Shown here in pieces: positions 8,965-47,672 of a stretch of DNA of 64,000 nt. Positions within the stretch are counted from its first letter, which is position 1. Every line of letters begins with the position of its first letter. Both the position numbers and the translations under genes were made by a program. The DNA is from Candidatus Latescibacterota bacterium (GTDB lineage Bacteria > Latescibacterota > UBA2968 > UBA8231): positions 362,077 through 426,076 of the forward strand of contig CBDCXV010000010.1 of the NCBI GenBank assembly GCA_965223905.1, in the 5' to 3' direction. Below the pieces are notes generated by a model. It did not search any database. It was not told the origin of the DNA and was given only the letters and a program-made list of their open reading frames with translations.

Positions 8965-8987
8965 CGCCACATTCCCGCATCACCATC

Positions 8988-9576
8988 AAGTATAGGTAAA
9001 ATGAGGCACCTTTTTTGGACTCTCGGTCAAGGCGGACAGCGCACCGCCAGGGTCAGGCAGCTCCCGGAGGATCGTTTGCCAGTCCTTCGACCGAGCTCGC
9101 AGTACAGTTTGGTTGCCTGTCGGCCCGTATCCGGATCAATTCGGGGCCTGAGGGACCGTTGAGGGCACACCCCGCCGTACGCCCGGCGACGGCCACGGGT
9201 CGAGAAGGCAGGTCAGGCGGCGAACTCGAACAGCGGCTCAGGCGGGGCCCTCGGCGGGGGCATCGCCGGCAGCCCTACCCCCTCCAGACAGGTCCGGATC
9301 GAAGCCGGATCGGTCCGGGCGGCGAGGATTCTCAGGCGACCGCCACAGGCCGCACATTCGCTGAGGTCGGAGGAAAACACCCGCGCCAGCAGGGTCGCCC
9401 ACCGCAGCCGATGGCCGCAGGACGCAGGGCTCGCCGAGCCGTCCGCCGCCGACGGCTCGGCAACCGGCTTGGCCGGCACGATGCGCTCGCGGGCCCGGGG
9501 CCGGGGCGCCAGGACCCCGTGGTAGCGCAGGAGATGAAACCGGGGCGGGGGAACCAGAGCCGCCCGCTTCTCCAGC
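8988..9576 (-). mobile_element. mini IS91-family element (3' end of tnpA plus the presumed oriIS-side terminus), copy 2
   Basis: Same terminus AAGTATAGGTAAAATGAGG as the other copies. Encodes LEKRAALVPPPRFHLLRYHGVLAP...CAACGGRLRILAARTDPASIRTCLEGVGLP. Homology to copy 1 stops at ...CTTCTCCAGC (9576). Confidence 0.8.
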
Positions 9577-12069: not shown

Positions 12070-12135
12070 TTCACCGGTTCCAGACTCACCTGACCACTAG
12101 AGGTGTGCGGACCGTTCTGCCGCTGAAGGCCCTTA

Positions 12136-12724
12136 AAGTATAGGTAAAATGAGGCACCTTTTTTGGACTCTCGGTCAAGGCGGACAGCGCACCGCCAGGG
12201 TCAGGCAGCTCCCGGAGGATCGTTTGCCAGTCCTTCGACCGAGCTCGCAGTACAGTTTGGTTGCCTGTCGGCCCGTATCCGGATCAATTCGGGGCCTGAG
12301 GGACCGTTGAGGGCACACCCCGCCGTACGCCCGGCGACGGCCACGGGTCGAGAAGGCAGGTCAGGCGGCGAACTCGAACAGCGGCTCAGGCGGGGCCCTC
12401 GGCGGGGGCATCGCCGGCAGCCCTACCCCCTCCAGACAGGTCCGGATCGAAGCCGGATCGGTCCGGGCGGCGAGGATTCTCAGGCGACCGCCACAGGCCG
12501 CACATTCGCTGAGGTCGGAGGAAAACACCCGCGCCAGCAGGGTCGCCCACCGCAGCCGATGGCCGCAGGACGCAGGGCTCGCCGAGCCGTCCGCCGCCGA
12601 CGGCTCGGCAACCGGCTTGGCCGGCACGATGCGCTCGCGGGCCCGGGGCCGGGGCGCCAGGACCCCGTGGTAGCGCAGGAGATGAAACCGGGGCGGGGGA
12701 ACCAGAGCCGCCCGCTTCTCCAGC
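12136..12724 (-). mobile_element. mini IS91-family element, copy 3 (identical to copy 2)
   Basis: Identical sequence to 8988-9576. Confidence 0.8.
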
Positions 12725-36757: not shown

Positions 36758-37208
36758 CTATACCCAGCGGGCGGATGGATCAGGAGGGCGAATCGGCAAA
36801 GGAGGGGGTGTCTGATCCGGACAGTCGGCTGGAAGGGTGTAGTCTCCCAGTTCGGGTTCGAGGTAGGTAAGGCCATATGCAACAGCCATTCGGGAGAATG
36901 GCCCTCTACCATCGAGGGAGTCGTAGTCATCGGGTTCCGGTAATGCTGCCACCGGGTAGCGTACGTACTGCTGAGTAAGCTGTCTCCACCAAGGTCTCGC
37001 GAAGGCCTCCTGTGCCCCAACAACCTCGGCTCCACCACCAGTGAGAAATACCTCCACTCGATGCCAAGGACCTTCCTTATGCAGATGTTTGTATGCCTCC
37101 GTCCAGACGGGTCGAGCTTCCTTGTGAATCATTGACAGAATCTTCTTTACACCATCTACCAAGTCCAGCTGCGTCCCCCGCCGCAGCCCGTTGATCTTCT
37201 CACTGATC
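36758..37208 (-). pseudogene. Hsp70/actin-fold ATPase, C-terminal part (gene split by IS insertion)
   Basis: Contains the adenosine-motif-like VFLTGGGAEV. The upstream reading frame continues to the IS boundary as ISEKINGLRRGTQLDLVDGVKK. Confidence 0.75.
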
Positions 37209-38783
37209 GGGTGTCTTAGCTGATTGTTACGGTTTCGGTGGTTGTTTTTAGGTTTTCTCGGTACTGCTGAAAGACCCGGTCAAGCGTTCCATTGTACAAG
37301 GCGCAGCGCAGGGCCAGAATGGCGTTGCTGTTTTCCTTATACCACCAAGCGCCCGACCGTTTCAGACGAACGTGGCCGATGAAGCGATGCGCCGATTCGA
37401 TCGCCCCCGACCCGATCGGGTATCCGCCCTTGCGATGGCTGCCGAAATCGACCTGGTGCAGTCGCTTTTGCAGGTAGGTCAAGGCCGTGCCGATGGCCTC
37501 TCCGGCCTCTTCCGAGAGCGGCTGCATGCGCTGCAGACCCCAGACCACGCCGCTGCCCTCGCCGCAGAACAGGCGCGCCAGGGTCGCTTCCAGCCAATGG
37601 GCAGCACGCGCCGCATCGGCGCCGTATTGGGCCTCGGCCACCGCGTGCAGGTAGCTGCTGCAATGGTAGTAGTCGAGGATCTGACGGGCGCTCGGGAACA
37701 GCTCTTCCACCCACTTCCAGATCCACGGAGCGCCATCTCCGATGGCACACAAGCGCACCTGATCCTCCGGGATCAGCCCCGCCTCCTTGACCTGGCGCAA
37801 GGCCGCGCCGAAGGCCTGTTCGTTGCCCATCTGGTGCCAGGAGATCAGCTGCTCGATGCGCTCATCGTCTATCAGGTAGAAGCGAAAGCCCTTGGCTTCG
37901 TGGTATTCCCCCTGCCAACGCCTTCGCCGAGCCCGGCTCTTCTTGCGTCCGGGACGGGTGCCTTTGGCGGTCTGGGGACGACTGGGCACGTCGGCCGCGT
38001 CGATGGCCAACACCACGATCGGCCGCCACTTGCGACCGGCGGCGGCTTGCGCAATGCGATCCTGGATATCGGCCGCGTCCGGACACACCTGCAGCACGTC
38101 CAACGACCCGGTCTGTTGCAGCACCTCGTGAATCACACAATCGCTCATCGACGCGTCGGTGAGCTCGTCCAACAGTTCGGCGGCGCGCCGGTGGGGCATC
38201 TCCAGCCCCAGCTTGACCCCGGCCTGCTGCACGTCCCACTGCTTGCGCTGCGCCGACAGGCCCAGGGCCTCGTCCAGCGGATAGAACCCGTGGTGACAGC
38301 CAACGCAGTAGAAATAGGGACGCTCCAAGGTCACCGGCCCGAGCAGCGTCTCCACCGTGCGCGAGCGAGACGGGCGCGCTCGCAGCAGGCCTTTGCACTT
38401 GGGGCAGGCCGCCTCTTCCTGGGCCAGGAAATGGCCGTGGCGGCGTTCGACGAAGGCTTCCACCAAGGCCGCGGTGAGCCCGGAGCGCTCTTGAGACATC
38501 GCCGCGGTGATCTCCATCAACGTCGGCGCACAAGATCCGCGCTCGCTCATTTGCGTCTCCACCCGATCCAGCCATTGGTCCAAGGCTTCATGCGCCCGGC
38601 TTCGAAAGCGGTCCTGACTCTGCCGCTCCTGAAAAACTTCCAGAGAGAGAATCGCACTCATCGCTCCCCTTCTTTCTGAAATCAGGGGAGCGCGCCGCAG
38701 GGGATGCGGAAAAAGAAAGCAACTTACTGTAAAATATACACATACGCACCTGAATTGCGCTATAACAATTACTTAAGACGCCC
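37209..38783 (-). mobile_element. complete 1575-bp DDE insertion sequence (ISKra4-like by recollection) with 8-bp target-site duplication
   Basis: Imperfect terminal inverted repeats GGGTGTCTTAGCTGATTGTTACGG and GGGCGTCTTAAGTAATTGTTATAG. Direct repeats CACTGATC at 37201-37208 and 38784-38791. Confidence 0.85.
37216..38661 (-). CDS. IS transposase (DDE type with N-terminal zinc ribbon; ISKra4-family-like)
   Basis: 481-aa intact ORF filling the IS, with CPKCKG...CVGCHHG. The family name is from memory and was not searched. Confidence 0.8.
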   Translation of the reverse strand: MSAILSLEVFQERQSQDRFRSRAHEALDQWLDRVETQMSERGSCAPTLMEITAAMSQERSGLTAALVEAFVERRHGHFLAQEEAACPKCKGLLRARPSRSRTVETLLGPVTLERPYFYCVGCHHGFYPLDEALGLSAQRKQWDVQQAGVKLGLEMPHRRAAELLDELTDASMSDCVIHEVLQQTGSLDVLQVCPDAADIQDRIAQAAAGRKWRPIVVLAIDAADVPSRPQTAKGTRPGRKKSRARRRRWQGEYHEAKGFRFYLIDDERIEQLISWHQMGNEQAFGAALRQVKEAGLIPEDQVRLCAIGDGAPWIWKWVEELFPSARQILDYYHCSSYLHAVAEAQYGADAARAAHWLEATLARLFCGEGSGVVWGLQRMQPLSEEAGEAIGTALTYLQKRLHQVDFGSHRKGGYPIGSGAIESAHRFIGHVRLKRSGAWWYKENSNAILALRCALYNGTLDRVFQQYRENLKTTTETVTIS

Positions 38784-39921
38784 CACTGATCTGCCCGGCC
38801 GTAAGGCCGCCTGCTCCATTCATTCCAACAAGCCGCTCGATGGCCAGCCCACCGATCGGCAGATTTCCGGACGAATACCAGTAACAGTGCTCTCCGGTTG
38901 GTTCATCAGCAAGATTAAAGAAGGAAACATCGGTCGTGCCCGCACCGATATCGATGAGGGCATGAAGTCCGGGCCTACGTCGAAGCGACGAAACATAGGA
39001 GGCGGCTTCCGCCACGGACTCGGGTATCACAAAGACTCTTTCAGGTTCAGGCTCCAAGGAGGGTGCTTCCTCCAAGGGGGGTGCTTCATAGGAACTGTAA
39101 TTTCCAGCCAACCACTCCGTTCTTGACCCGTATGGCCAGTCCCTTTCTACTGCCTCGGCCTTTGCCAGGATCTGTCTGAAGGCGTTCAGCACAGGATTGG
39201 ATTCTACGTGCTGCATGGGAAGACAGACGTTGTACAGGAACTCCAGCCTGCTGTTCACATATTCTGGCAGCTCGCTGATGCGTCGCCGAGCTTCTCGCAT
39301 CGCATATGCGAGATAAACGAAGGAAACTGTCCCTGGCGTCAGGACTCCCCCATTGATGGGATGCATCCGGGCATAGCGTTCGAATCCATCACTCAATTCC
39401 CCGGTTTCAAGGCCCGAATCACGCGATGCAACAAGCACCTTGAAGGCTCGCAGGGCCTCATCCCATGACCGGTCCCTCATCTGGCTGGCTGCTTCCTCTC
39501 CAACCAGCATTCTGCCATCGCCGTCGACCATCGCCAAGGTTGGCAGACCAAATGCGGGAACCCCTGGAAGACAATGATCGAAGATCAAAGGCTTTACTTC
39601 CCCTCGAGGACTCACTTGCCGGTAGGCGATCTTCGTGGTGCTCGTGCCGAAATCGATCCCGACCTGGATGATCGCGGCTCGTCTGGGCACTTCCTTTCTT
39701 GCCCTCGCTTGCGGAGATTGCGACCTCTTCGCCCCAGGGCTCCCTGCCGATGGGGAGTCCTGGCCGATGCCTGAAGGTGACGTGGAACCCCCTTGGTTCC
39801 GGAGACATGAACGTTCTTCGTTTTCCTGGGCAGGTTCCTTCCGACCCTTGCCTTTCCCTTGTCTCTCGCGCCGGACGTTACCGGCTATGGACTTCCAAAA
39901 TGCCCGCAGCAATTTCATCAT
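38784..39921 (-). pseudogene. Hsp70/actin-fold ATPase, N-terminal part (gene split by IS insertion)
   Basis: Phosphate-1 motif VGIDFGTSTTKIAY and phosphate-2 motif LIDIGAGTTDVSFF. Has an N-terminal basic, disordered stretch of about 90 aa. The start overlaps the SNF2 gene end by 44 nt. Confidence 0.75.
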
Positions 39922-42900
39922 AGGTGACTCCTACCCGGCGTTGCTGCTCCAGTGAATCGGCGTCCGCACCAAGCTTGCGCTCGATGTTATCGATGCTTCC
40001 GCGAAGCATCCTGAGATACCGCTCCTCTCGCCCCAATACCTCTCCTTTTTTTAGGAGTGCCTGCTGTCCTGCCAACTTCCTGCCCGCAAAGGCCCGTACG
40101 CTGGCAAGACGTCGATCGATAAACGCGTCATTCGTTCGCTCTGCTTCCAATCTAAGCCCTTTGATTCTCCCCAGGAGCAGTTGCTCGGCTTCATTGAAGG
40201 CATGCATTGCGCGATCCTCATCCACTGGCATGTGCCCTCCTTTGGGCTCCTGGCCGTTTTCGACTATCTCCCCAAGAATTGCCTCGGAATTTTCCGCAGA
40301 ACATGCTTCCTTCAAGTCTTCGTTCAGCACAACTATCTCAAGAACGCTGCTCTGCCGGAGCGCCTCAATTCTCAGCTTGAAAATGAAAAAATAGTAAGTA
40401 CCTGGATCGAGCAGACCCACTTCCCGTAGACTCACGCGCGTGGCTGGGGCGATCCGGGCTTCTTCGTAATGGCGCGCAATGGCCCGCACGAGGGGGTGTA
40501 CGACGTTGATGAATTCGATCCTCGGCTTGCGGAAGGCAAGGTCAGAATCGAAGGTCACTGAGATGCCAGTTCTTTCGGACCTAGCCAGGAGCTGTGTATC
40601 CCTGACGCTGACGTTCTCGCGGACAAGGAACTGTCTGAGCTGATCGCAGACATGGATAACACCATCACCTTCGGAACCGGTCAGGAATCTAGTCCGAGGG
40701 CAGTGTGAACGGAGAAAGTCACAGACAAATCTCTCAAGTTGAACGGAGGTCACATAACGACGCCGATCACGAATCCGTGCCACTTCTGCTTCAAAGTACT
40801 CGTCGACGCCCACCAGCTGGGCGGCTTTCTCCTCTAGCCTCTGCAGCTCTTGCAGCCGCTCTTCGAGAACAAGGACAGCGTGGTCTACACGTTGTTCGAT
40901 CTCCTCCGGGGTCAGACTCGTGCTCAGGAGCTCCCTTTCGAGATTGTGTACGATGTCCCCTAGAATATCCTCTAAATCCCCGATGGAACGCTCGAAAATC
41001 CCTATGCGGTTGTACAGCCGGTCCAGGATCTTCTTCTCGATCGTCCCTTCCACGGAGAAGTTGTAGATCCGAATAACCTCGGATTCCTGCCCAATACGAT
41101 CCAGCCGGCCGATTCGCTGTTCAACCTCCATAGGATTCCAGGGGAGGTCGTAGTTGAACATTGTGTTGCAGAACTGAAAGTCGAGACCTTCACCGCCGAT
41201 GCGGGAGGAGAGAAGGATGGGGATCTCTCGATCGTCCCGGAAACTGTCGATAACCCCTGTGCGTTCCTTCACGTGGACGTCACCGCTTAGGACGAGATTG
41301 GGGAATCCATCCGCGGAAAGTTTTTTACTCAGATAGTTCAGCGTTCCCTTGTAGAAAGCGAAAATCAGGCACTTGCACCCATTCTCCTCCTCCTGGATGC
41401 CACGAAGGGCTTGCGAGAGATGGGCGTATTTTGTGTCGATCCCATCGTCCCTCCACTCCCGCAATACATCTCGAAGCCGATGGGTAACTGATCCAAAGAC
41501 AGGCGGGGATTCTCCGTCCCCATTACTCGACGTAACCGTCTCATCCTCTGAAAGGTCTTCGATGCTAAGGTCACTGCATTCACGATAGTGCTCAACCATA
41601 GCCGGAATACAGGAAGCCATGCGTCTCTGGGGAGTCTGAAGGATCCAGCTCTGAACGACCGGATCGCCCGTTCTCTTGATGCTATTCTCTCGGACAAACT
41701 CGGTCACCGTGTCGTAAAATACCCGCTCCTGTTCGCTGAGCTGGACTTGCAAGACAAAGGCATGGCGTTCGACAACGTGCTCGTGGACTTCTCTCTTCCG
41801 TGTCCTCGAGAAGATATGACCGATCAGGTTGAGGTCTGCAAGATCCCCCTGAAGTCCAAGTTGCAGGCGTCTGCTATCATTTTCCCTCGGTTCCAGTTTC
41901 TCAAGCTTCTTCAGCTTAAGCATCGCCTCCATCATGGCGGGATTCTGGGCAATCTCTGTGCTCTTGGCGGCCCTATGCAAAAACTCTGTGGCTTGTTTCA
42001 CGTTCGGTGGAACACCTGCAATACATGCCTGAGCCTGAACGATTGGCGCATTCTGCTCAAATCGCGCCTGTGACGTTCGAAGTTCGGGGAAGCTTTCCTC
42101 ATCAAGGATATTGAGAAGGCTGAAAAGGTTTTCGTTTCCCAAGTGAACTGGGGTTGCGGTCAACATTATCATGGCGCTGGATCCACTTCCAAGAAGTTCG
42201 CCTGCTCTCCGGTTCCGGGTTCCGAAGTTTCGCATGTGATGTGCTTCGTCAACAATTACCAAGTCGAAAGTCGGCGCTTGGGCTTCCAGCACTTCGATGA
42301 TCTTGCGAGTACGAAGGCTTTCGATGGAAATGATTCCTGAGAGCTCCGACCGGTCGGGAGCCTCTTGGTACATACGCAAAAACGCCCCAAATCTTTCGGC
42401 GTCTAGTATCTCAAATCGTTCCCCAAAGCGGGTAAGCATCTCGGTTAACCACTTCTCTCTGAGATTGGAGGGGCAAACGACCAGCACTCTCTGCAGAGAC
42501 TCTCGTGCCCGCAATTCGGTCAGAATCAGCCCCGCCTCAATCGTCTTCCCGAGACCCACTTCATCGGCAATCAGAAGTCTGTGATTCGCTGAAGCCAGGA
42601 ATTTCAAGAGCGGCTTGAACTGGTACGGATAGAAGCGTGTTCTAGACGCATTGATTGCGTGGATGTTGTTTGTGAGTGGTCTGTCCCGGTTGAGTCTCTC
42701 ATAGGTTATCGCACGCTGGAATTCCCTGTAACCTCCGAGTTCTCCAGACGCCAGGACTTCATGTGGAGCTCTGTCTTCGAAGTACGATTGCAGATCATGT
42801 TCGGCAACCAGGGACTTATTTCCATCGTTCCAACTCACCCTGTAAAACTGAATCAAGCCACCATGATTCGGTCCGATTTCCAGGACCACCCCAATTATGC

Positions 42901-43144
42901 CGGTGTCTGCAATGAATTGTACTTGATCACCGGGTTTGAACTTTGGCCCCTTCGGGATTTTCTGTTTGCCACGGATACGTCGATAACGCTCGACAATATG
43001 GGGGACTACCTCACTTGCCGGGCGCATACGCGCAATTTCTTCGCCGGTAAGTTCCCGTGTGTCCGGATCGGCGGCGATGGCAGCACGGATTTCGATGTCC
43101 TCCTCTTTTGTTGGGAGAACCATTCTATTTTTGTCTTTTGGCAT
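39878..43144 (-). CDS. fusion protein: BrnA(DUF4415)-like N-terminus + Tudor/SH3-like domain + SNF2-family helicase + C-terminal region of about 370 aa with unknown function
   Basis: Start taken at the ATG at 43144 (MPKDKN...). DPDTRELTGEEIARMRPASEVVPHIVERYRRIRGKQKIPKG matches the BrnA pattern. SNF2 motifs present: ADEVGLGKTIEAG, VVCPSNL, VIVDEAHHMRN, LTATPV and GGEGLDFQFCNTMFNYDLPWNPMEVEQRIGRLDRIGQ. Confidence 0.8.
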   Translation of the reverse strand: MPKDKNRMVLPTKEEDIEIRAAIAADPDTRELTGEEIARMRPASEVVPHIVERYRRIRGKQKIPKGPKFKPGDQVQFIADTGIIGVVLEIGPNHGGLIQFYRVSWNDGNKSLVAEHDLQSYFEDRAPHEVLASGELGGYREFQRAITYERLNRDRPLTNNIHAINASRTRFYPYQFKPLLKFLASANHRLLIADEVGLGKTIEAGLILTELRARESLQRVLVVCPSNLREKWLTEMLTRFGERFEILDAERFGAFLRMYQEAPDRSELSGIISIESLRTRKIIEVLEAQAPTFDLVIVDEAHHMRNFGTRNRRAGELLGSGSSAMIMLTATPVHLGNENLFSLLNILDEESFPELRTSQARFEQNAPIVQAQACIAGVPPNVKQATEFLHRAAKSTEIAQNPAMMEAMLKLKKLEKLEPRENDSRRLQLGLQGDLADLNLIGHIFSRTRKREVHEHVVERHAFVLQVQLSEQERVFYDTVTEFVRENSIKRTGDPVVQSWILQTPQRRMASCIPAMVEHYRECSDLSIEDLSEDETVTSSNGDGESPPVFGSVTHRLRDVLREWRDDGIDTKYAHLSQALRGIQEEENGCKCLIFAFYKGTLNYLSKKLSADGFPNLVLSGDVHVKERTGVIDSFRDDREIPILLSSRIGGEGLDFQFCNTMFNYDLPWNPMEVEQRIGRLDRIGQESEVIRIYNFSVEGTIEKKILDRLYNRIGIFERSIGDLEDILGDIVHNLERELLSTSLTPEEIEQRVDHAVLVLEERLQELQRLEEKAAQLVGVDEYFEAEVARIRDRRRYVTSVQLERFVCDFLRSHCPRTRFLTGSEGDGVIHVCDQLRQFLVRENVSVRDTQLLARSERTGISVTFDSDLAFRKPRIEFINVVHPLVRAIARHYEEARIAPATRVSLREVGLLDPGTYYFFIFKLRIEALRQSSVLEIVVLNEDLKEACSAENSEAILGEIVENGQEPKGGHMPVDEDRAMHAFNEAEQLLLGRIKGLRLEAERTNDAFIDRRLASVRAFAGRKLAGQQALLKKGEVLGREERYLRMLRGSIDNIERKLGADADSLEQQRRVGVTYDEIAAGILEVHSR

Positions 43145-43388
43145 ATTCGCGGGCCTCGCTTCTGGTGGCCTTGCGCAGGCTGATAATTCGGGTGTCCCTG
43201 CTCTGGTCTGCGAAGACAACAACGTGAAGATTTGCGCCGATAAAACCCGTGGCGATCCAGCGGGATTCGGCGTGATCTCCATCCATATCAACTACAGCGT
43301 TTTCCCACTCAAATGCCTCCATGTCGACAAAGTCCACGCCATGTTTCGTCAAATTGCCTCGCCGTTTGTCTTCGTCCCATTGGTACAT
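43125..43388 (-). CDS. brnT: BrnT-family (DUF497) ribonuclease toxin
   Basis: YQWDEDKRRGNLTKHGVDFVDMEAF...RWIATGFIGANLHVVVFA...RIISLRKATRSEAREY is a full-length BrnT signature. The stop overlaps the downstream ATG by 20 nt. Confidence 0.85.
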   Translation of the reverse strand: MYQWDEDKRRGNLTKHGVDFVDMEAFEWENAVVDMDGDHAESRWIATGFIGANLHVVVFADQSRDTRIISLRKATRSEAREYAKRQK

Positions 43389-43517
43389 TGCATTTGCGTG
43401 CCATGATCCATTTCAATTTGGAATAAACTCTCGTCTGGTAGCTGTCAATTCATGAGAGCCGATTCATCCGACCTGATCCGAGTTCAGCAAATCCCATTCG
43501 CCAGCTATAACATCTTA

Positions 43518-44011: not shown

Positions 44012-44887
44012 TCACTGTTCCCAGCGTTCCGGGGCGATCGCCGGTGCGTCCGACCTCATCCCCACCGGCTTGTGGGGCTGCTCCCAGTCGACCCCCGAGG
44101 TGTTGAGGCTCTGCAGGAAGCGCCGGGCCACGGCCGGGGCCGCGGCGACCAGCTCGGGGTCCCAATCCTCCATCGGCTGGATGGGGCCGGCCCAGGCGGG
44201 ACGGTAGCCCAGCTGCACCAGGGTGCGCAGCGAATCCGACCGGTTGGGGTGGGTGCCGTGAAAGATGTTGACCGGAAATACCGCGGCGGTCCCCGCCTTT
44301 GCGCAGATGGTCACCTCTCCCGGGTGCGACTTGTAGCGCACGTACGGGTTGGCGTCGACGTGAAAGGAGAGGTGCGAGCGCGGCAGTACGCGCAGGGGGG
44401 CCCGCTCGGGGGTGAGGTCGTCGAGGTAGTAGAGCACCCGCAGCAGCTTCGGGGAGCTGCCCTCGTACCCGAAGATCGAGGAGCCGAACGGCTGCCCGTC
44501 GGTGTGCAGGGAGATCGGTGGGGACCCGGACAGGGTGCGCGTGAACAGCCCGCGGGTGAAGACGATCTCCTCGCCGCACAGCGCCTCGAGGAACTCGACC
44601 ACCGGCGGGTTGGCGATCACTTCCGCCAACGCCGGGCTGTACCACTGCGGCTCGCGGTGGTAGGTCTGGCAGTCGCTGTAATCTTTCGTCCCCATCGGCG
44701 CGTCCGCCATCTCCTGCTTGATGCGGCCCATGTGATCGGCGTCGAGCACGCCGGGAAGGACGACGTACCCCTCGACCTCGAGGTGGCGCATCTTCTCCCC
44801 CAGGGTCATGGCGCCGTAGTCGGTCTCGTCGATGTTCATGAAGTCGATCCTCTCTTCGGGATCGAAGTTCAGGTCGCGTTTGGCCAT
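44012..44887 (-). CDS. PhyH family Fe(II)/2OG oxygenase
   Basis: Start at MAKRDL, preceded by GGAGA. EVEGYVVLPGVL...SLHTDGQP...PLRVLPRSH...IFHGTHPN. Confidence 0.8.
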   Translation of the reverse strand: MAKRDLNFDPEERIDFMNIDETDYGAMTLGEKMRHLEVEGYVVLPGVLDADHMGRIKQEMADAPMGTKDYSDCQTYHREPQWYSPALAEVIANPPVVEFLEALCGEEIVFTRGLFTRTLSGSPPISLHTDGQPFGSSIFGYEGSSPKLLRVLYYLDDLTPERAPLRVLPRSHLSFHVDANPYVRYKSHPGEVTICAKAGTAAVFPVNIFHGTHPNRSDSLRTLVQLGYRPAWAGPIQPMEDWDPELVAAAPAVARRFLQSLNTSGVDWEQPHKPVGMRSDAPAIAPERWEQ

Positions 44888-45019
44888 CGGTATTCTCCGC
44901 GTGTCTCCCGAGTCTCGGCCCCGCCGCGGCGAGGCATTACCGAGGCGAGGCATTACCGAAAAGTAAATAGGCAAACAGGTGGCCCGGAACAAGCGGCGGA
45001 TGCCCCCGGCCTGCTGCAC

Positions 45020-45414: not shown

Positions 45415-47103
45415 CTATCCACCCCCGACTTCGCTGGCGCCGCGCGCCCTCAGAAGGGCCGCGAGCTCCTCGTCGCCGCGCCCCAGCGCCGCGGAGAGCG
45501 GGGTCGTGCCGTCGTCGGCAGCGGCGGCGATATCGGCGCCGTGGGCGAGCAGCAGGTCGAGCACCTGTTCCCCTTCCGGGCTTGCGGTGACGCCGTGAAC
45601 GGGGGTGTGGCCTGCCGCGAGGCGGGCCTTCGCCAGGGCCGGATCGGATTCCAGGACCGCGGCGAGCTGCTCAACCCTGCCCCAAGCCGTCAGGTCGAAC
45701 ACGTCCCTGCTGTGATCGAGCAGCAGGTCGCGAAGCTCGAAGTGGCCGGCGTGATTGGCGAAGCCTACCGGGGTGGCGTCGTGGTCCCTCTCCCGGATCT
45801 CGCAGTTCGCCCCGCGAGCCAGCAGCAGGCGGACGACCTCGCCGCTGTTCTCCCAGGCGGCCCAGTGCAGGGAGACGCGGCCCCTCTCGTTCGGCGCGTC
45901 GGGGTCGGCCCCGAGATCGAGGAGCAGGCGGGTCGCCGCGGCATTGGTCACCGCTTCCTGGAGCAGCTCGGGGTTCTCTATCAGGCCGGGTGCTTCCGCG
46001 AGCAGCTGATTCGCCCTGCCCTCGTCGCCGCTCATCACTGCCGCGGTGAAGCGGTCTTCCAGGGACAGCTCCACGACTTCGGCGCCGTGTCGAGCCAGCA
46101 TTTCCGCAATCTCCGGAAAGCCCCCGAGAACGGCGTTCTCGTAGTTCGAGCGGCCCTTGTAGAGATCGGGGGCCGTCACGTCGGCGCCGTGCTCCAGCAG
46201 CAGGGACACCCTTTCGGGGAATCCCCTCTTGACCGCCTGGGACAACTGGTAGTCGAGGGTCCTCAGCGGCGGGTCGTGGGAGGGATAGACCACTGCGGCT
46301 GCCTCAAGCCCGCGCGACAGGAACAGCTCCAGCCACTGGTTGTCCGGGGTGAACATCGTGTTGTAGAGCCCCTGCGCGTCGTTCGGGTCGGCCCCGGCGT
46401 CGAGCAGGATCGCCGCCAGCTCGCGGGCCCGCGGGTGGGGCGGCTGCTGCAGGAGGCCATGCTCCCCCTCCCCCATGACCCCGGTCAGGGCAGACCAGCT
46501 CCAGCCGCCCCGCTCCTCCGGTCCCACGCAGGTGTCGCCCGGGGCGCCGGCGGCGAGCAGCAGCTCAGCCGCGGCCACGGCGTCGCGCCGTGGCGTATCC
46601 TCCGGCACCCGGCTGAAACAGAGGTAGAGGAGCGGCGGCCAGTCGCGCGGCCCTCCGGGGGCGACTGCGCTGTCCGCATCCCGGGTCAGATGCCGCAGGG
46701 CTTCGACATCGGAAGCGGCCGCGGCGGCCCAGGGGTGCACCCAGGAGATCCCGGGAGTTTCGCCCAGCATGCGGGCGGCGCGCTCGCGGCGGCTGACGTG
46801 GTCGTCGCCGCGATACGACAGGCAGGCGAGCTCGGCGAACAGATCGGCCAGATCCTCAAGAGTTCCCGAAACCCCGGCCTCCTCCTCGAAGGCCCGCTGC
46901 AACTCCCACCAGCCAGGATGCCCGTATTTCCGGGCAACCACCAACAGGGCGTCGCGACAGGTGCTGAACTCTCCCGGGTCCGGATGGTGCTCGCGGATGA
47001 GCTCGAGCGCTTCATGCGGTTTGCGCCGGGCCCGGTCGAGAAGGGATTTCGCCTCCCTGCGGAGACTGGACAGGCTGGGACGGCTGGATCTATCGACGGA
47101 CAT
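45415..47103 (-). CDS. ankyrin-repeat protein
   Basis: Multiple ANK units (e.g. GRVSLHWAAWENSGEVVRLLLARGAN and DGTTPLSAALGRGDEELAALLRARGA). Start taken at MSVDRSS; the ORF is open to 47196. Confidence 0.8.
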   Translation of the reverse strand: MSVDRSSRPSLSSLRREAKSLLDRARRKPHEALELIREHHPDPGEFSTCRDALLVVARKYGHPGWWELQRAFEEEAGVSGTLEDLADLFAELACLSYRGDDHVSRRERAARMLGETPGISWVHPWAAAAASDVEALRHLTRDADSAVAPGGPRDWPPLLYLCFSRVPEDTPRRDAVAAAELLLAAGAPGDTCVGPEERGGWSWSALTGVMGEGEHGLLQQPPHPRARELAAILLDAGADPNDAQGLYNTMFTPDNQWLELFLSRGLEAAAVVYPSHDPPLRTLDYQLSQAVKRGFPERVSLLLEHGADVTAPDLYKGRSNYENAVLGGFPEIAEMLARHGAEVVELSLEDRFTAAVMSGDEGRANQLLAEAPGLIENPELLQEAVTNAAATRLLLDLGADPDAPNERGRVSLHWAAWENSGEVVRLLLARGANCEIRERDHDATPVGFANHAGHFELRDLLLDHSRDVFDLTAWGRVEQLAAVLESDPALAKARLAAGHTPVHGVTASPEGEQVLDLLLAHGADIAAAADDGTTPLSAALGRGDEELAALLRARGASEVGGG

Positions 47104-47672
47104 GGAGGTCCCTTTCGCGAAATAGTCCGGACCCGTTGTGACAGGCAGAATAGAAGGGTTTGTCGGAGGTTTGCCGGCTGCGGGATCGGCACCCAAGGGG
47201 ACCCATTACCTGCCGCGACCTGAGGAGCTTCCGGGCAGCCCATTCGGGGTGCGGCCGGTCCCTGCGCCCCGCGTTGCAGCATTGGGCTCGCGCGCCGCGT
47301 TTCCTCCCGCGACTCGGCTCGAAAACCCTGCCATCGGCCGAGCGAGTTAGCAGCCCGTTGATAAAGTTGCTCTGTAGGCGAGGCCGAGTCATGACGGTCG
47401 AAGACAAGGCGCGCGACCGAGTCGAATCGAGGGGATTCGGGGAGGGAGCGCAACGCCGTATTCGGACGCTCTTTCGAGCGTTTCAGGGAACGGCAAAGCC
47501 GTTCCCAACACGAACCCCAAGGGTTCGCGACCGTCAGGGCCGCCCGCAGCCCAGATGGACTTTTTCCACGGGCTGTTAGTCCCGATTCGAAGCCGCCTCC
47601 CCGCCAGAGGGAATGCTCGAACCCTCCGGTGGCACCCTGGCGGCTGGCTTTCGGCGATAATAGGTTCGGGCC

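Follow-up and report, generated by a model that had tools for sequence, protein, structure and literature searches.

Within a 64,000-nucleotide stretch of DNA from a Candidatus Latescibacterota bacterium (GenBank assembly GCA_965223905.1, contig CBDCXV010000010.1, forward-strand positions 362,077 to 426,076; hereafter the window, by whose own numbering positions are given), we found a gene in which the N-terminal half of the antitoxin BrnA is grafted in frame onto a RapA-like Swi2/Snf2 ATPase. The gene lies directly downstream of brnT, which encodes an RNase toxin, and is in an operon with a gene for an ASKHA-type partner protein. The graft is conserved. From comparisons of sequences and predicted structures, we consider it somewhat probable that the three genes form a module in which BrnT is silenced on the helicase through the BrnA-derived stub and is released upon a trigger. 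The toxin gene and the parts of the fusion gene are as follows.

43125..43388, minus strand: brnT, encoding an 87-residue RNase toxin of the RelE superfamily (PF04365, E=2.6e-22)
39878..43144, minus strand: fusion gene, encoding 1088 residues (BrnA N-terminal module, linker, SH3/Tudor-like barrel, RapA-like Swi2/Snf2 ATPase and RapA-like C-terminal region)
42953..43144, minus strand: BrnA N-terminal module, putatively BrnT binding, residues 1-64 (75-80% identity to 105-residue PF14384 proteins)
42932..42970, minus strand: junction and linker, residues ~59-71, where BrnA would enter the strand of its ribbon-helix-helix (RHH) domain (predicted local distance difference test score, pLDDT, <50 at residues 59-65)
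42782..42931, minus strand: SH3/Tudor-like barrel of five strands, residues ~72-121, the native N-terminal domain of the helicase family (strands from DSSP)
41060..42628, minus strand: Swi2/Snf2 ATPase core, residues ~173-695 (SNF2-rel_dom, E=1.2e-20; Helicase_C, E=2.6e-22; ResIII, E=1e-10)

The fusion open reading frame (ORF) starts with an ATG at 43144-43142 on the minus strand, and its stop codon ends at 39878. The 3′ end of brnT overlaps the start of the fusion gene by 20 nt, in toxin-first order, and a canonical brnT/brnA pair (locus L001, 9757-10020 and 10001-10318) has an identical 20-nt overlap. The window BrnT scored above the family threshold for PF04365 (79.3 bits; cutoff, 34.5), and its relatives in the PDB are 7vd7 and 3u97, the latter a structure of Brucella BrnT. 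A scan for promoters 5′ of brnT returned nothing convincing. A TTGACA box followed by 'nCnACCAGA', located ~60-70 nt 5′ of brnT (43420-43470), is common to the window, L001 and L053, one of the other fusion loci described below. The box was not clearly present in the remaining fusion loci and may be an ancestral brnTA promoter.

The sequence-only reading of the interval 42770-43144, which encodes residues 1-125 of the fusion ORF, had taken the N-terminus of the protein downstream of BrnT to be BrnA/DUF4415-like. When compared directly with the PF14384 (BrnA/DUF4415) profile hidden Markov model, the fusion N-terminus scored below threshold (E=0.14, 13 bits; cutoff, 26.1). The match covers residues 28-60, which correspond to profile positions 1-34 of 68, and its weakness reflects the absence of the other half of the domain. 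Using residues 1-70 as a database query, we recovered 44 short stand-alone BrnA-type proteins, with E values down to 1e-22. These proteins are mostly ~105 residues long, are mostly annotated with PF14384 and are 75-80% identical to residues 1-64 of the fusion. The stand-alone BrnA P0006 matches PF14384 with E=2.2e-21 over its own residues 29-100. Thus, the profile comparison taken literally was not significant, a half-domain artifact, while the claim itself stands through the identity to bona fide PF14384 proteins: the sequence homology of residues 1-64 to the N-terminal half of BrnA is unambiguous. In a scan of GTDB, the closest stand-alone BrnAs came from metagenome-assembled genomes (MAGs) of Latescibacterota, Gemmatimonadota and Dehalococcoidia.

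Alignment placed the junction precisely. The fusion tracks the stand-alone BrnAs through '...VVPHIVERYRRxRGKQK(A/I)P' and parts from them where they run on with 'KKHISIRLDADLAEHFRNSGPGWQTRLNDALRRAV'. The junction therefore falls directly before the 'ISIRLDADL...' segment of canonical BrnA, and the C-terminal RHH part (RHH folds dimerize) is absent. Had an island simply inserted into brnA, a remnant of the missing half would be expected; a search of the entire 64-kb window for coding sequence of the BrnA C-terminal half found none. All of the positions that are invariant in the BrnA N-terminal module (P11, E15, I19, I23, D26, P27, R41, A43, E45, V46, P48 and H49) are retained in the fusion. In AlphaFold2 (AF2) models, residues 13-57 of the fusion form four short helices that match the helices of canonical BrnA, and the C-terminal region of canonical BrnA forms an extended stretch and then two helices, an arrangement consistent with an RHH. 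The RHH has been described as the C-terminal, promoter-binding part of BrnA (PMC11980606). Since a Foldseek search of the PDB with the BrnA monomer model gave zero matches, the RHH assignment rests on that report together with the strand-helix-helix pattern in the AF2 model.

The remainder of the protein is a complete helicase. From residue ~69 onward, it matches the PADLOC DrmD model PDLC02623 end to end (E=2e-172), and the match to the NCBIfam RapA profile starts at fusion residue 69, at profile position 55. Unfused homologs start right at the junction, with 'MAKFRPGDQVQ...' or 'MTRVPDFEPGNQVQ...' (pattern 'M..KF.PGDQVQ'), indicating that the graft joins the BrnA linker to approximately the second or third residue of the helicase. 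The AF2 model of the full-length fusion (mean pLDDT, 80.5) has an overall RapA fold, and its five best Foldseek matches are all E. coli RapA (E values from 6e-40 to 5e-27, over 987-1086 aligned columns). In this model, a low-confidence linker at residues 59-65, the sequence of which is variable among the six known fusions, leads into a barrel at residues 74-120 with DSSP strands at 74-77, 84-94, 98-105, 110-114 and 118-120. The ATPase motifs (I, II and VI; GLGKT, DEAHH and QRIGRLDRIGQ) are intact. Alignment, profiles and AF2 models thus agree with the earlier proposal that, immediately downstream of brnT, an SH3/Tudor-like domain and a SNF2 ATPase stand in place of the DNA-binding half of BrnA, and both the barrel and the top Foldseek matches support its likening of that domain to the one in RapA.

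Although the fold is that of RapA, the protein scored below the cutoffs of two NCBIfam equivalogs, with 233.6 bits against 576 for RapA (PRK04914) and 344 bits against 610 for DISARM_DrmD. Near the fusion gene, in the window and in the other fusion loci, we found no DrmA, DrmB (DUF1998), DrmC or methyltransferase gene. With the DrmD score below cutoff and the context wrong, we rejected membership in DISARM. A 1185-residue member of the same helicase family, P0121, carries an unrelated N-terminal extension of ~160 residues, and accessory modules may quite generally be attached at the N-terminus in this family.

To determine how widely the fusion is shared, we searched with the whole protein and obtained five other clusters, all with 1088-1089 residues, 100% query coverage, 74-85% identity and the same N-terminus. 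Contigs were recovered for all five (L002, L003, L053, L054 and L055), and in each fusion locus brnT, with its 20-nt overlap, is followed by the fusion gene and by a third gene that overlaps the 3′ end of the helicase by 44 nt. The loci derive from at least four assemblies and lie in four or more genomic contexts. The contig of L002 resembles a plasmid and encodes RepA, ParA/ParG and several other toxin-antitoxin (TA) pairs. Among the chromosomal loci, L003 and L054 share one site, and L053 and the window each lie at a different one. A missed stop codon or frameshift near the junction, a concern raised with the sequence-only reading, is excluded by the reading frame that six independent assemblies share. 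None of the six fusion loci contains an internal stop, and none has an in-frame ATG, GTG or TTG at the junction, making it unlikely that the helicase is produced separately.

We calculated the ratio of nonsynonymous to synonymous substitution rates (dN/dS) across the six fusion loci by the Nei-Gojobori method (mean dS ~1). For codons 8-64 of the stub, the ratio was 0.147 (Fisher tests on the stub, p values from 1e-8 to 4e-4); the barrel, the ATPase and BrnT had ratios of 0.22, 0.11 and 0.18, respectively. By these codon comparisons, the stub, the helicase and BrnT are all under purifying selection.

No more fusions were found in 185,579 GTDB species representatives or in JGI metagenomes, where only stand-alone BrnA was present. 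The unfused helicases P0049 and P0051 are 80-82% identical to the fusion protein, and we found neither brnT/brnA nor a remnant of it 5′ of these sister genes. An alignment of the helicases to which BrnA sequences had been added was rejected, as the added sequences were misaligned. Assembly MKWU01 contains an unfused helicase-partner pair (L004, encoding P0051, 80% identical) as well as a canonical brnA (L066) that is 80% identical to the stub; thus, both parents of the fusion co-occur in one community.

The BrnA N-terminal module also occurs in other architectures. Our exhaustive search identified a 391-residue protein, P0173, in which a P63C domain (PF10546, E=1e-25) follows the module (residues 1-58). 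The start of its gene is overlapped by a brnT that had not been called (both within L062:1291-2707), and a further brnT fragment lies at L062:3547-3642. An 83-residue BrnA variant, P0027, keeps the N-terminal module and has a short, unrelated tail in place of the RHH. Its gene adjoins an intact brnT with the usual overlap in two data sets (L063:3754-4252 and L064:2220-2718). The P0027 locus lies in a core chromosomal region, between the NADH dehydrogenase operon and matE/tatC/nusB, and clusters P0028 and P0020 share the P0027 tail. Two further small proteins, P0165 and P0196, carry two tandem copies of the module and no RHH. As modules that lack the RHH adjoin intact brnT in both the P63C fusion and the 83-residue variant, these arrangements suggest that the N-terminal half of BrnA, which is absent from solved structures, is its toxin-binding part, and it looks like a portable toxin-binding module.

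The third gene of the operon, referred to here as the partner gene, is split in the window by an insertion sequence (IS).

38784..39921, minus strand: 5′ part of the partner gene, encoding a probable actin/Hsp70-like ASKHA ATPase, cut by the IS (76% identity to residues 1-375 of the L002 partner)
37209..38783, minus strand: ISKra4-family IS in the partner gene (transposase 38661-37216; NF033572, E=4.2e-74, above cutoff)
36758..37208, minus strand: 3′ part of the partner gene, in frame and otherwise intact (77% identity to residues 374-524 of the L002 partner)

When intact, the partner has 520-525 residues (524 in L002). It matches FtsA, MreB, HscA, EutJ, EutA and MamK at motif level only, through the phosphate-binding motifs 'GIDFGTSTTK' and 'DIGAGTTDVS', and is probably an ATPase of the actin/Hsp70 (ASKHA) type. 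We rejected its assignment to PADLOC PDC-M61B, since that match covers only a 43-residue nucleotide-binding motif. In the window, the 5′ part of the partner gene overlaps the 3′ end of the helicase by 44 nt, and overlaps of ~40 nt are found in unfused relatives. Helicases of this family are normally paired with the ~520-residue partner, and the two genes, with overlapping frames, stay together in unfused relatives down to 49% identity. One such pair (L057-L060, 49% identity) lies between a type I restriction-modification/GmrSD cluster and an E1/E2-patatin cluster, and another (L061) lies among IS elements and a DNA methylase. These contexts point to a possible role in defense for the helicase-partner cassette.

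Owing to the ISKra4-family insertion, the partner ORF in the window ends at 382 residues. The element is bordered by perfect copies of an 8-bp target duplication, GATCAGTG, at 38784-38791 and 37201-37208. Because the two halves of the gene are still in frame at 76-77% identity and the duplication is perfect, the insertion is recent relative to the age of the fusion. The window copy of the system is probably crippled, with its sensing side broken; the toxin/tether pair is intact. In L003 (11224-13610), the gene for a DDE_3 (IS630-like) transposase truncates the partner at 447 residues, and the partner of the syntenic L054 is intact, with 522 residues. The insertions in the window and in L003 are independent.

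In the window, the module sits in a stretch of low GC content (52-59%, versus ~67% in the flanks). Apart from the partner and the IS, the neighbors we identified are a creatininase, a 2-oxoglutarate oxygenase, a metallophosphatase, a PhyH protein and an ankyrin protein, of which the PhyH-type dioxygenase (44012-45019) and the 593-residue ankyrin-repeat protein (45415-47196) flank the island. No tRNA gene was found across the full 64-kb window. Elsewhere in the window, positions 8983-9282 and 12131-12430 form a direct repeat with 99% identity and a spacing of 3148 bp. This repeat is possibly longer (~8.8-9.8 kb and 12.0-13.0 kb, judging from tblastn noise) and may represent two copies of a mobile element. 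Many sulfatases are encoded in related loci. Relatives come from MAGs with isolate names resembling sponge-metagenome bins, and the source bacterium may be sponge associated.

In the mechanism we propose, the stub would be the toxin-binding part of BrnA, and BrnT, made by translational coupling with the helicase, would be docked in an inactive state on the helicase N-terminus via the flexible linker. As the RHH domain is lost, promoter autoregulation of the BrnA type would be gone. The later steps are less certain. The helicase/partner machine might meet a trigger, possibly foreign nucleic acid or an attack on the machine by a phage protein, and BrnT might then be freed by a conformational change or by degradation of the stub. 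Freed BrnT would cleave RNA, and growth of the infected cell would stop. The functional suggestion of the sequence-only reading, in which the translocase neutralizes or tethers the toxin and could link the sensing of nucleic acids to its release, is plausible, and the two other brnT loci with BrnA modules that lack the RHH lend it indirect support. A more general version of this idea is plausible, but we stop short of favoring it: the first ~60 residues of BrnA may be a "toxin dock" that was moved from a DNA-binding repressor to a RapA-like motor and to a P63C protein, with the toxin becoming the releasable effector of a sensor machine.

Several observations weigh against the proposed module. 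The fusion is rare, comprising six clusters at 90% identity, and in a simple neighbor-joining tree the unfused sisters are nested within the fused clade. Either the fusion was lost once, which would mean that it can be lost, or the neighbor-joining topology is unreliable. Neither PADLOC nor NCBIfam nor Pfam has a name for the two-gene cassette, and the matches of the partner do not extend beyond motifs. The partner is disrupted by an IS in two of the six loci, including the window, which fits decay or a cost of carriage. Searches of the PDB with BrnA, both as a single sequence and as a profile, gave no real match, and there is no solved BrnTA complex. It is also conceivable that a second brnA is present elsewhere in the genome.

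In the main rival reading, addiction only, the stub neutralizes BrnT and the helicase works separately, without signaling. Loss of the fusion gene would then free BrnT, making the helicase gene and its island or plasmid hard to lose. TA modules are classic stabilizers, and the plasmid-like contig L002 carries several TA pairs besides this one, together with RepA and ParA/ParG; losing the RHH abolishes regulation and calls for no new function. Moreover, the IS insertions struck the partner in two loci and never brnT or the fusion gene, although two of six is a tiny sample. We nevertheless regard pure addiction as rather unlikely. A labile antitoxin is usual, and a folded ATPase of 1088 residues would be an odd choice, whereas a free brnTA pair beside the cassette would stabilize it equally well. 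An exact in-frame graft at residue two or three of the helicase, kept over a dS of ~1, suggests instead that the physical linkage was selected.

That the locus is a decaying relic, in which a deletion joined brnA to the helicase and the window copy is already nonfunctional on its way to loss, is improbable. The IS-split partners in the window and L003, the small size of the fused clade with its unfused sisters and the low-GC island (52-59%, versus ~67% in the flanks) would be consistent with decay. However, every part has a dN/dS of 0.1-0.2 across the six loci, in which synonymous change is saturated; internal stops are absent, and the ATPase motifs are all intact. The in-frame partner halves and the perfect 8-bp duplication also make the insertion recent relative to the fusion. 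We judge an artifact, in which a short brnA and a separate helicase gene only seem to be one because of an overlooked stop codon, a frameshift or a chimeric assembly, to be very improbable indeed. The only prompt for this explanation is the weak direct Pfam match, whereas one continuous ORF of 1088-1089 residues with an identical junction is shared by six contigs, which come from four or more assemblies and differ at 15-26% of residues, a divergence at which a single systematic error in all six is not credible. The window also holds no coding remnant of the BrnA C-terminal half.

The three-gene module bears on active questions concerning the relation of TA modules to phage-defense systems and the control of toxic effectors by defense sensors. 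It offers a simple, testable case, since it combines a small and well-understood RNase toxin, a 64-residue peptide that should suffice to hold the toxin and a large ATPase that can be mutated. It also draws attention to a widespread pair of helicase and actin-like genes, which is a candidate defense system. If BrnA does contain a movable toxin dock, the fusion would represent a natural intermediate in the wiring of TA pairs into multicomponent immune systems, and it would name an effector for an uncharacterized defense cassette of a helicase and an actin/Hsp70-like protein. If the link is purely addictive, the fusion would still be an example of a selfish module that renders a large gene undeletable.

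The module resembles the type II TA system BrnT/BrnA (Brucella abortus; PF04365/PF14384) in its BrnT toxin, its toxin-first order, its 20-nt overlap and, at 75-80% identity, its BrnA N-terminal half. It differs from that system in lacking the C-terminal RHH, in having a 1020-residue RapA-like ATPase instead and in including a third operon gene, which encodes the ASKHA-type partner. Single-chain fusions of BrnT and BrnA have been cataloged, as have exchanges of the BrnA RHH for a helix-turn-helix (PMC11980606). Those cases show that fusion arises readily in brnTA modules and that BrnA can exchange its DNA-binding half; however, they are toxin-antitoxin joins or DNA-binding swaps, none joins BrnA to an ATPase, and the word "helicase" is not mentioned. 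In the searchable literature (BrnT with SNF2 or helicase; helicase/Hsp70-like pair), this architecture was not described.

With the RapA/HepA-like Swi2/Snf2 defense ATPases, which include DISARM DrmD, BREX BrxHII and ARMADA ArmA, the fusion protein has in common its RapA fold, its match to the PADLOC DrmD model and an unfused relative in a defense island. Unlike in those systems, no DrmA, DrmB, DrmC, PglX-type methyltransferase or YprA helicase was found nearby, and the constant neighbor is an actin/Hsp70-like protein. Of the described members, none has an antitoxin-derived N-terminus. The PrrC anticodon nuclease is held by the type Ic enzyme EcoprrI, and in Hachiman the HamA nuclease is held by the HamB helicase. 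The logic that we propose would be similar, as an effector would be inactive on a DNA motor and freed when the motor is engaged or attacked; in contrast, the proteins are unrelated, and the masking element here would be recycled from a type II antitoxin.

Coupling of helicases to RelE-type RNases is also known. In defense, ArmD is an example of a helicase linked to a RelE-type RNase (PMC12458937), the CnuH protein of CoCoNuTs has a RelE-like domain, and genes resembling brnT lie upstream of some CoCoNuT operons (PMC11090510). As in these systems, the RNase of the module belongs to the RelE superfamily and is coupled to a motor that is driven by nucleoside triphosphates and acts on nucleic acids, in a putative defense context. 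Here, however, the RNase is a separate protein and the motor bears not the toxin but a docking module from the antitoxin, implying a releasable, noncovalent link to the effector. The pairing of a helicase with a RelE-type RNase is an established theme in defense; the novelty of the present case lies in the direction of the link.

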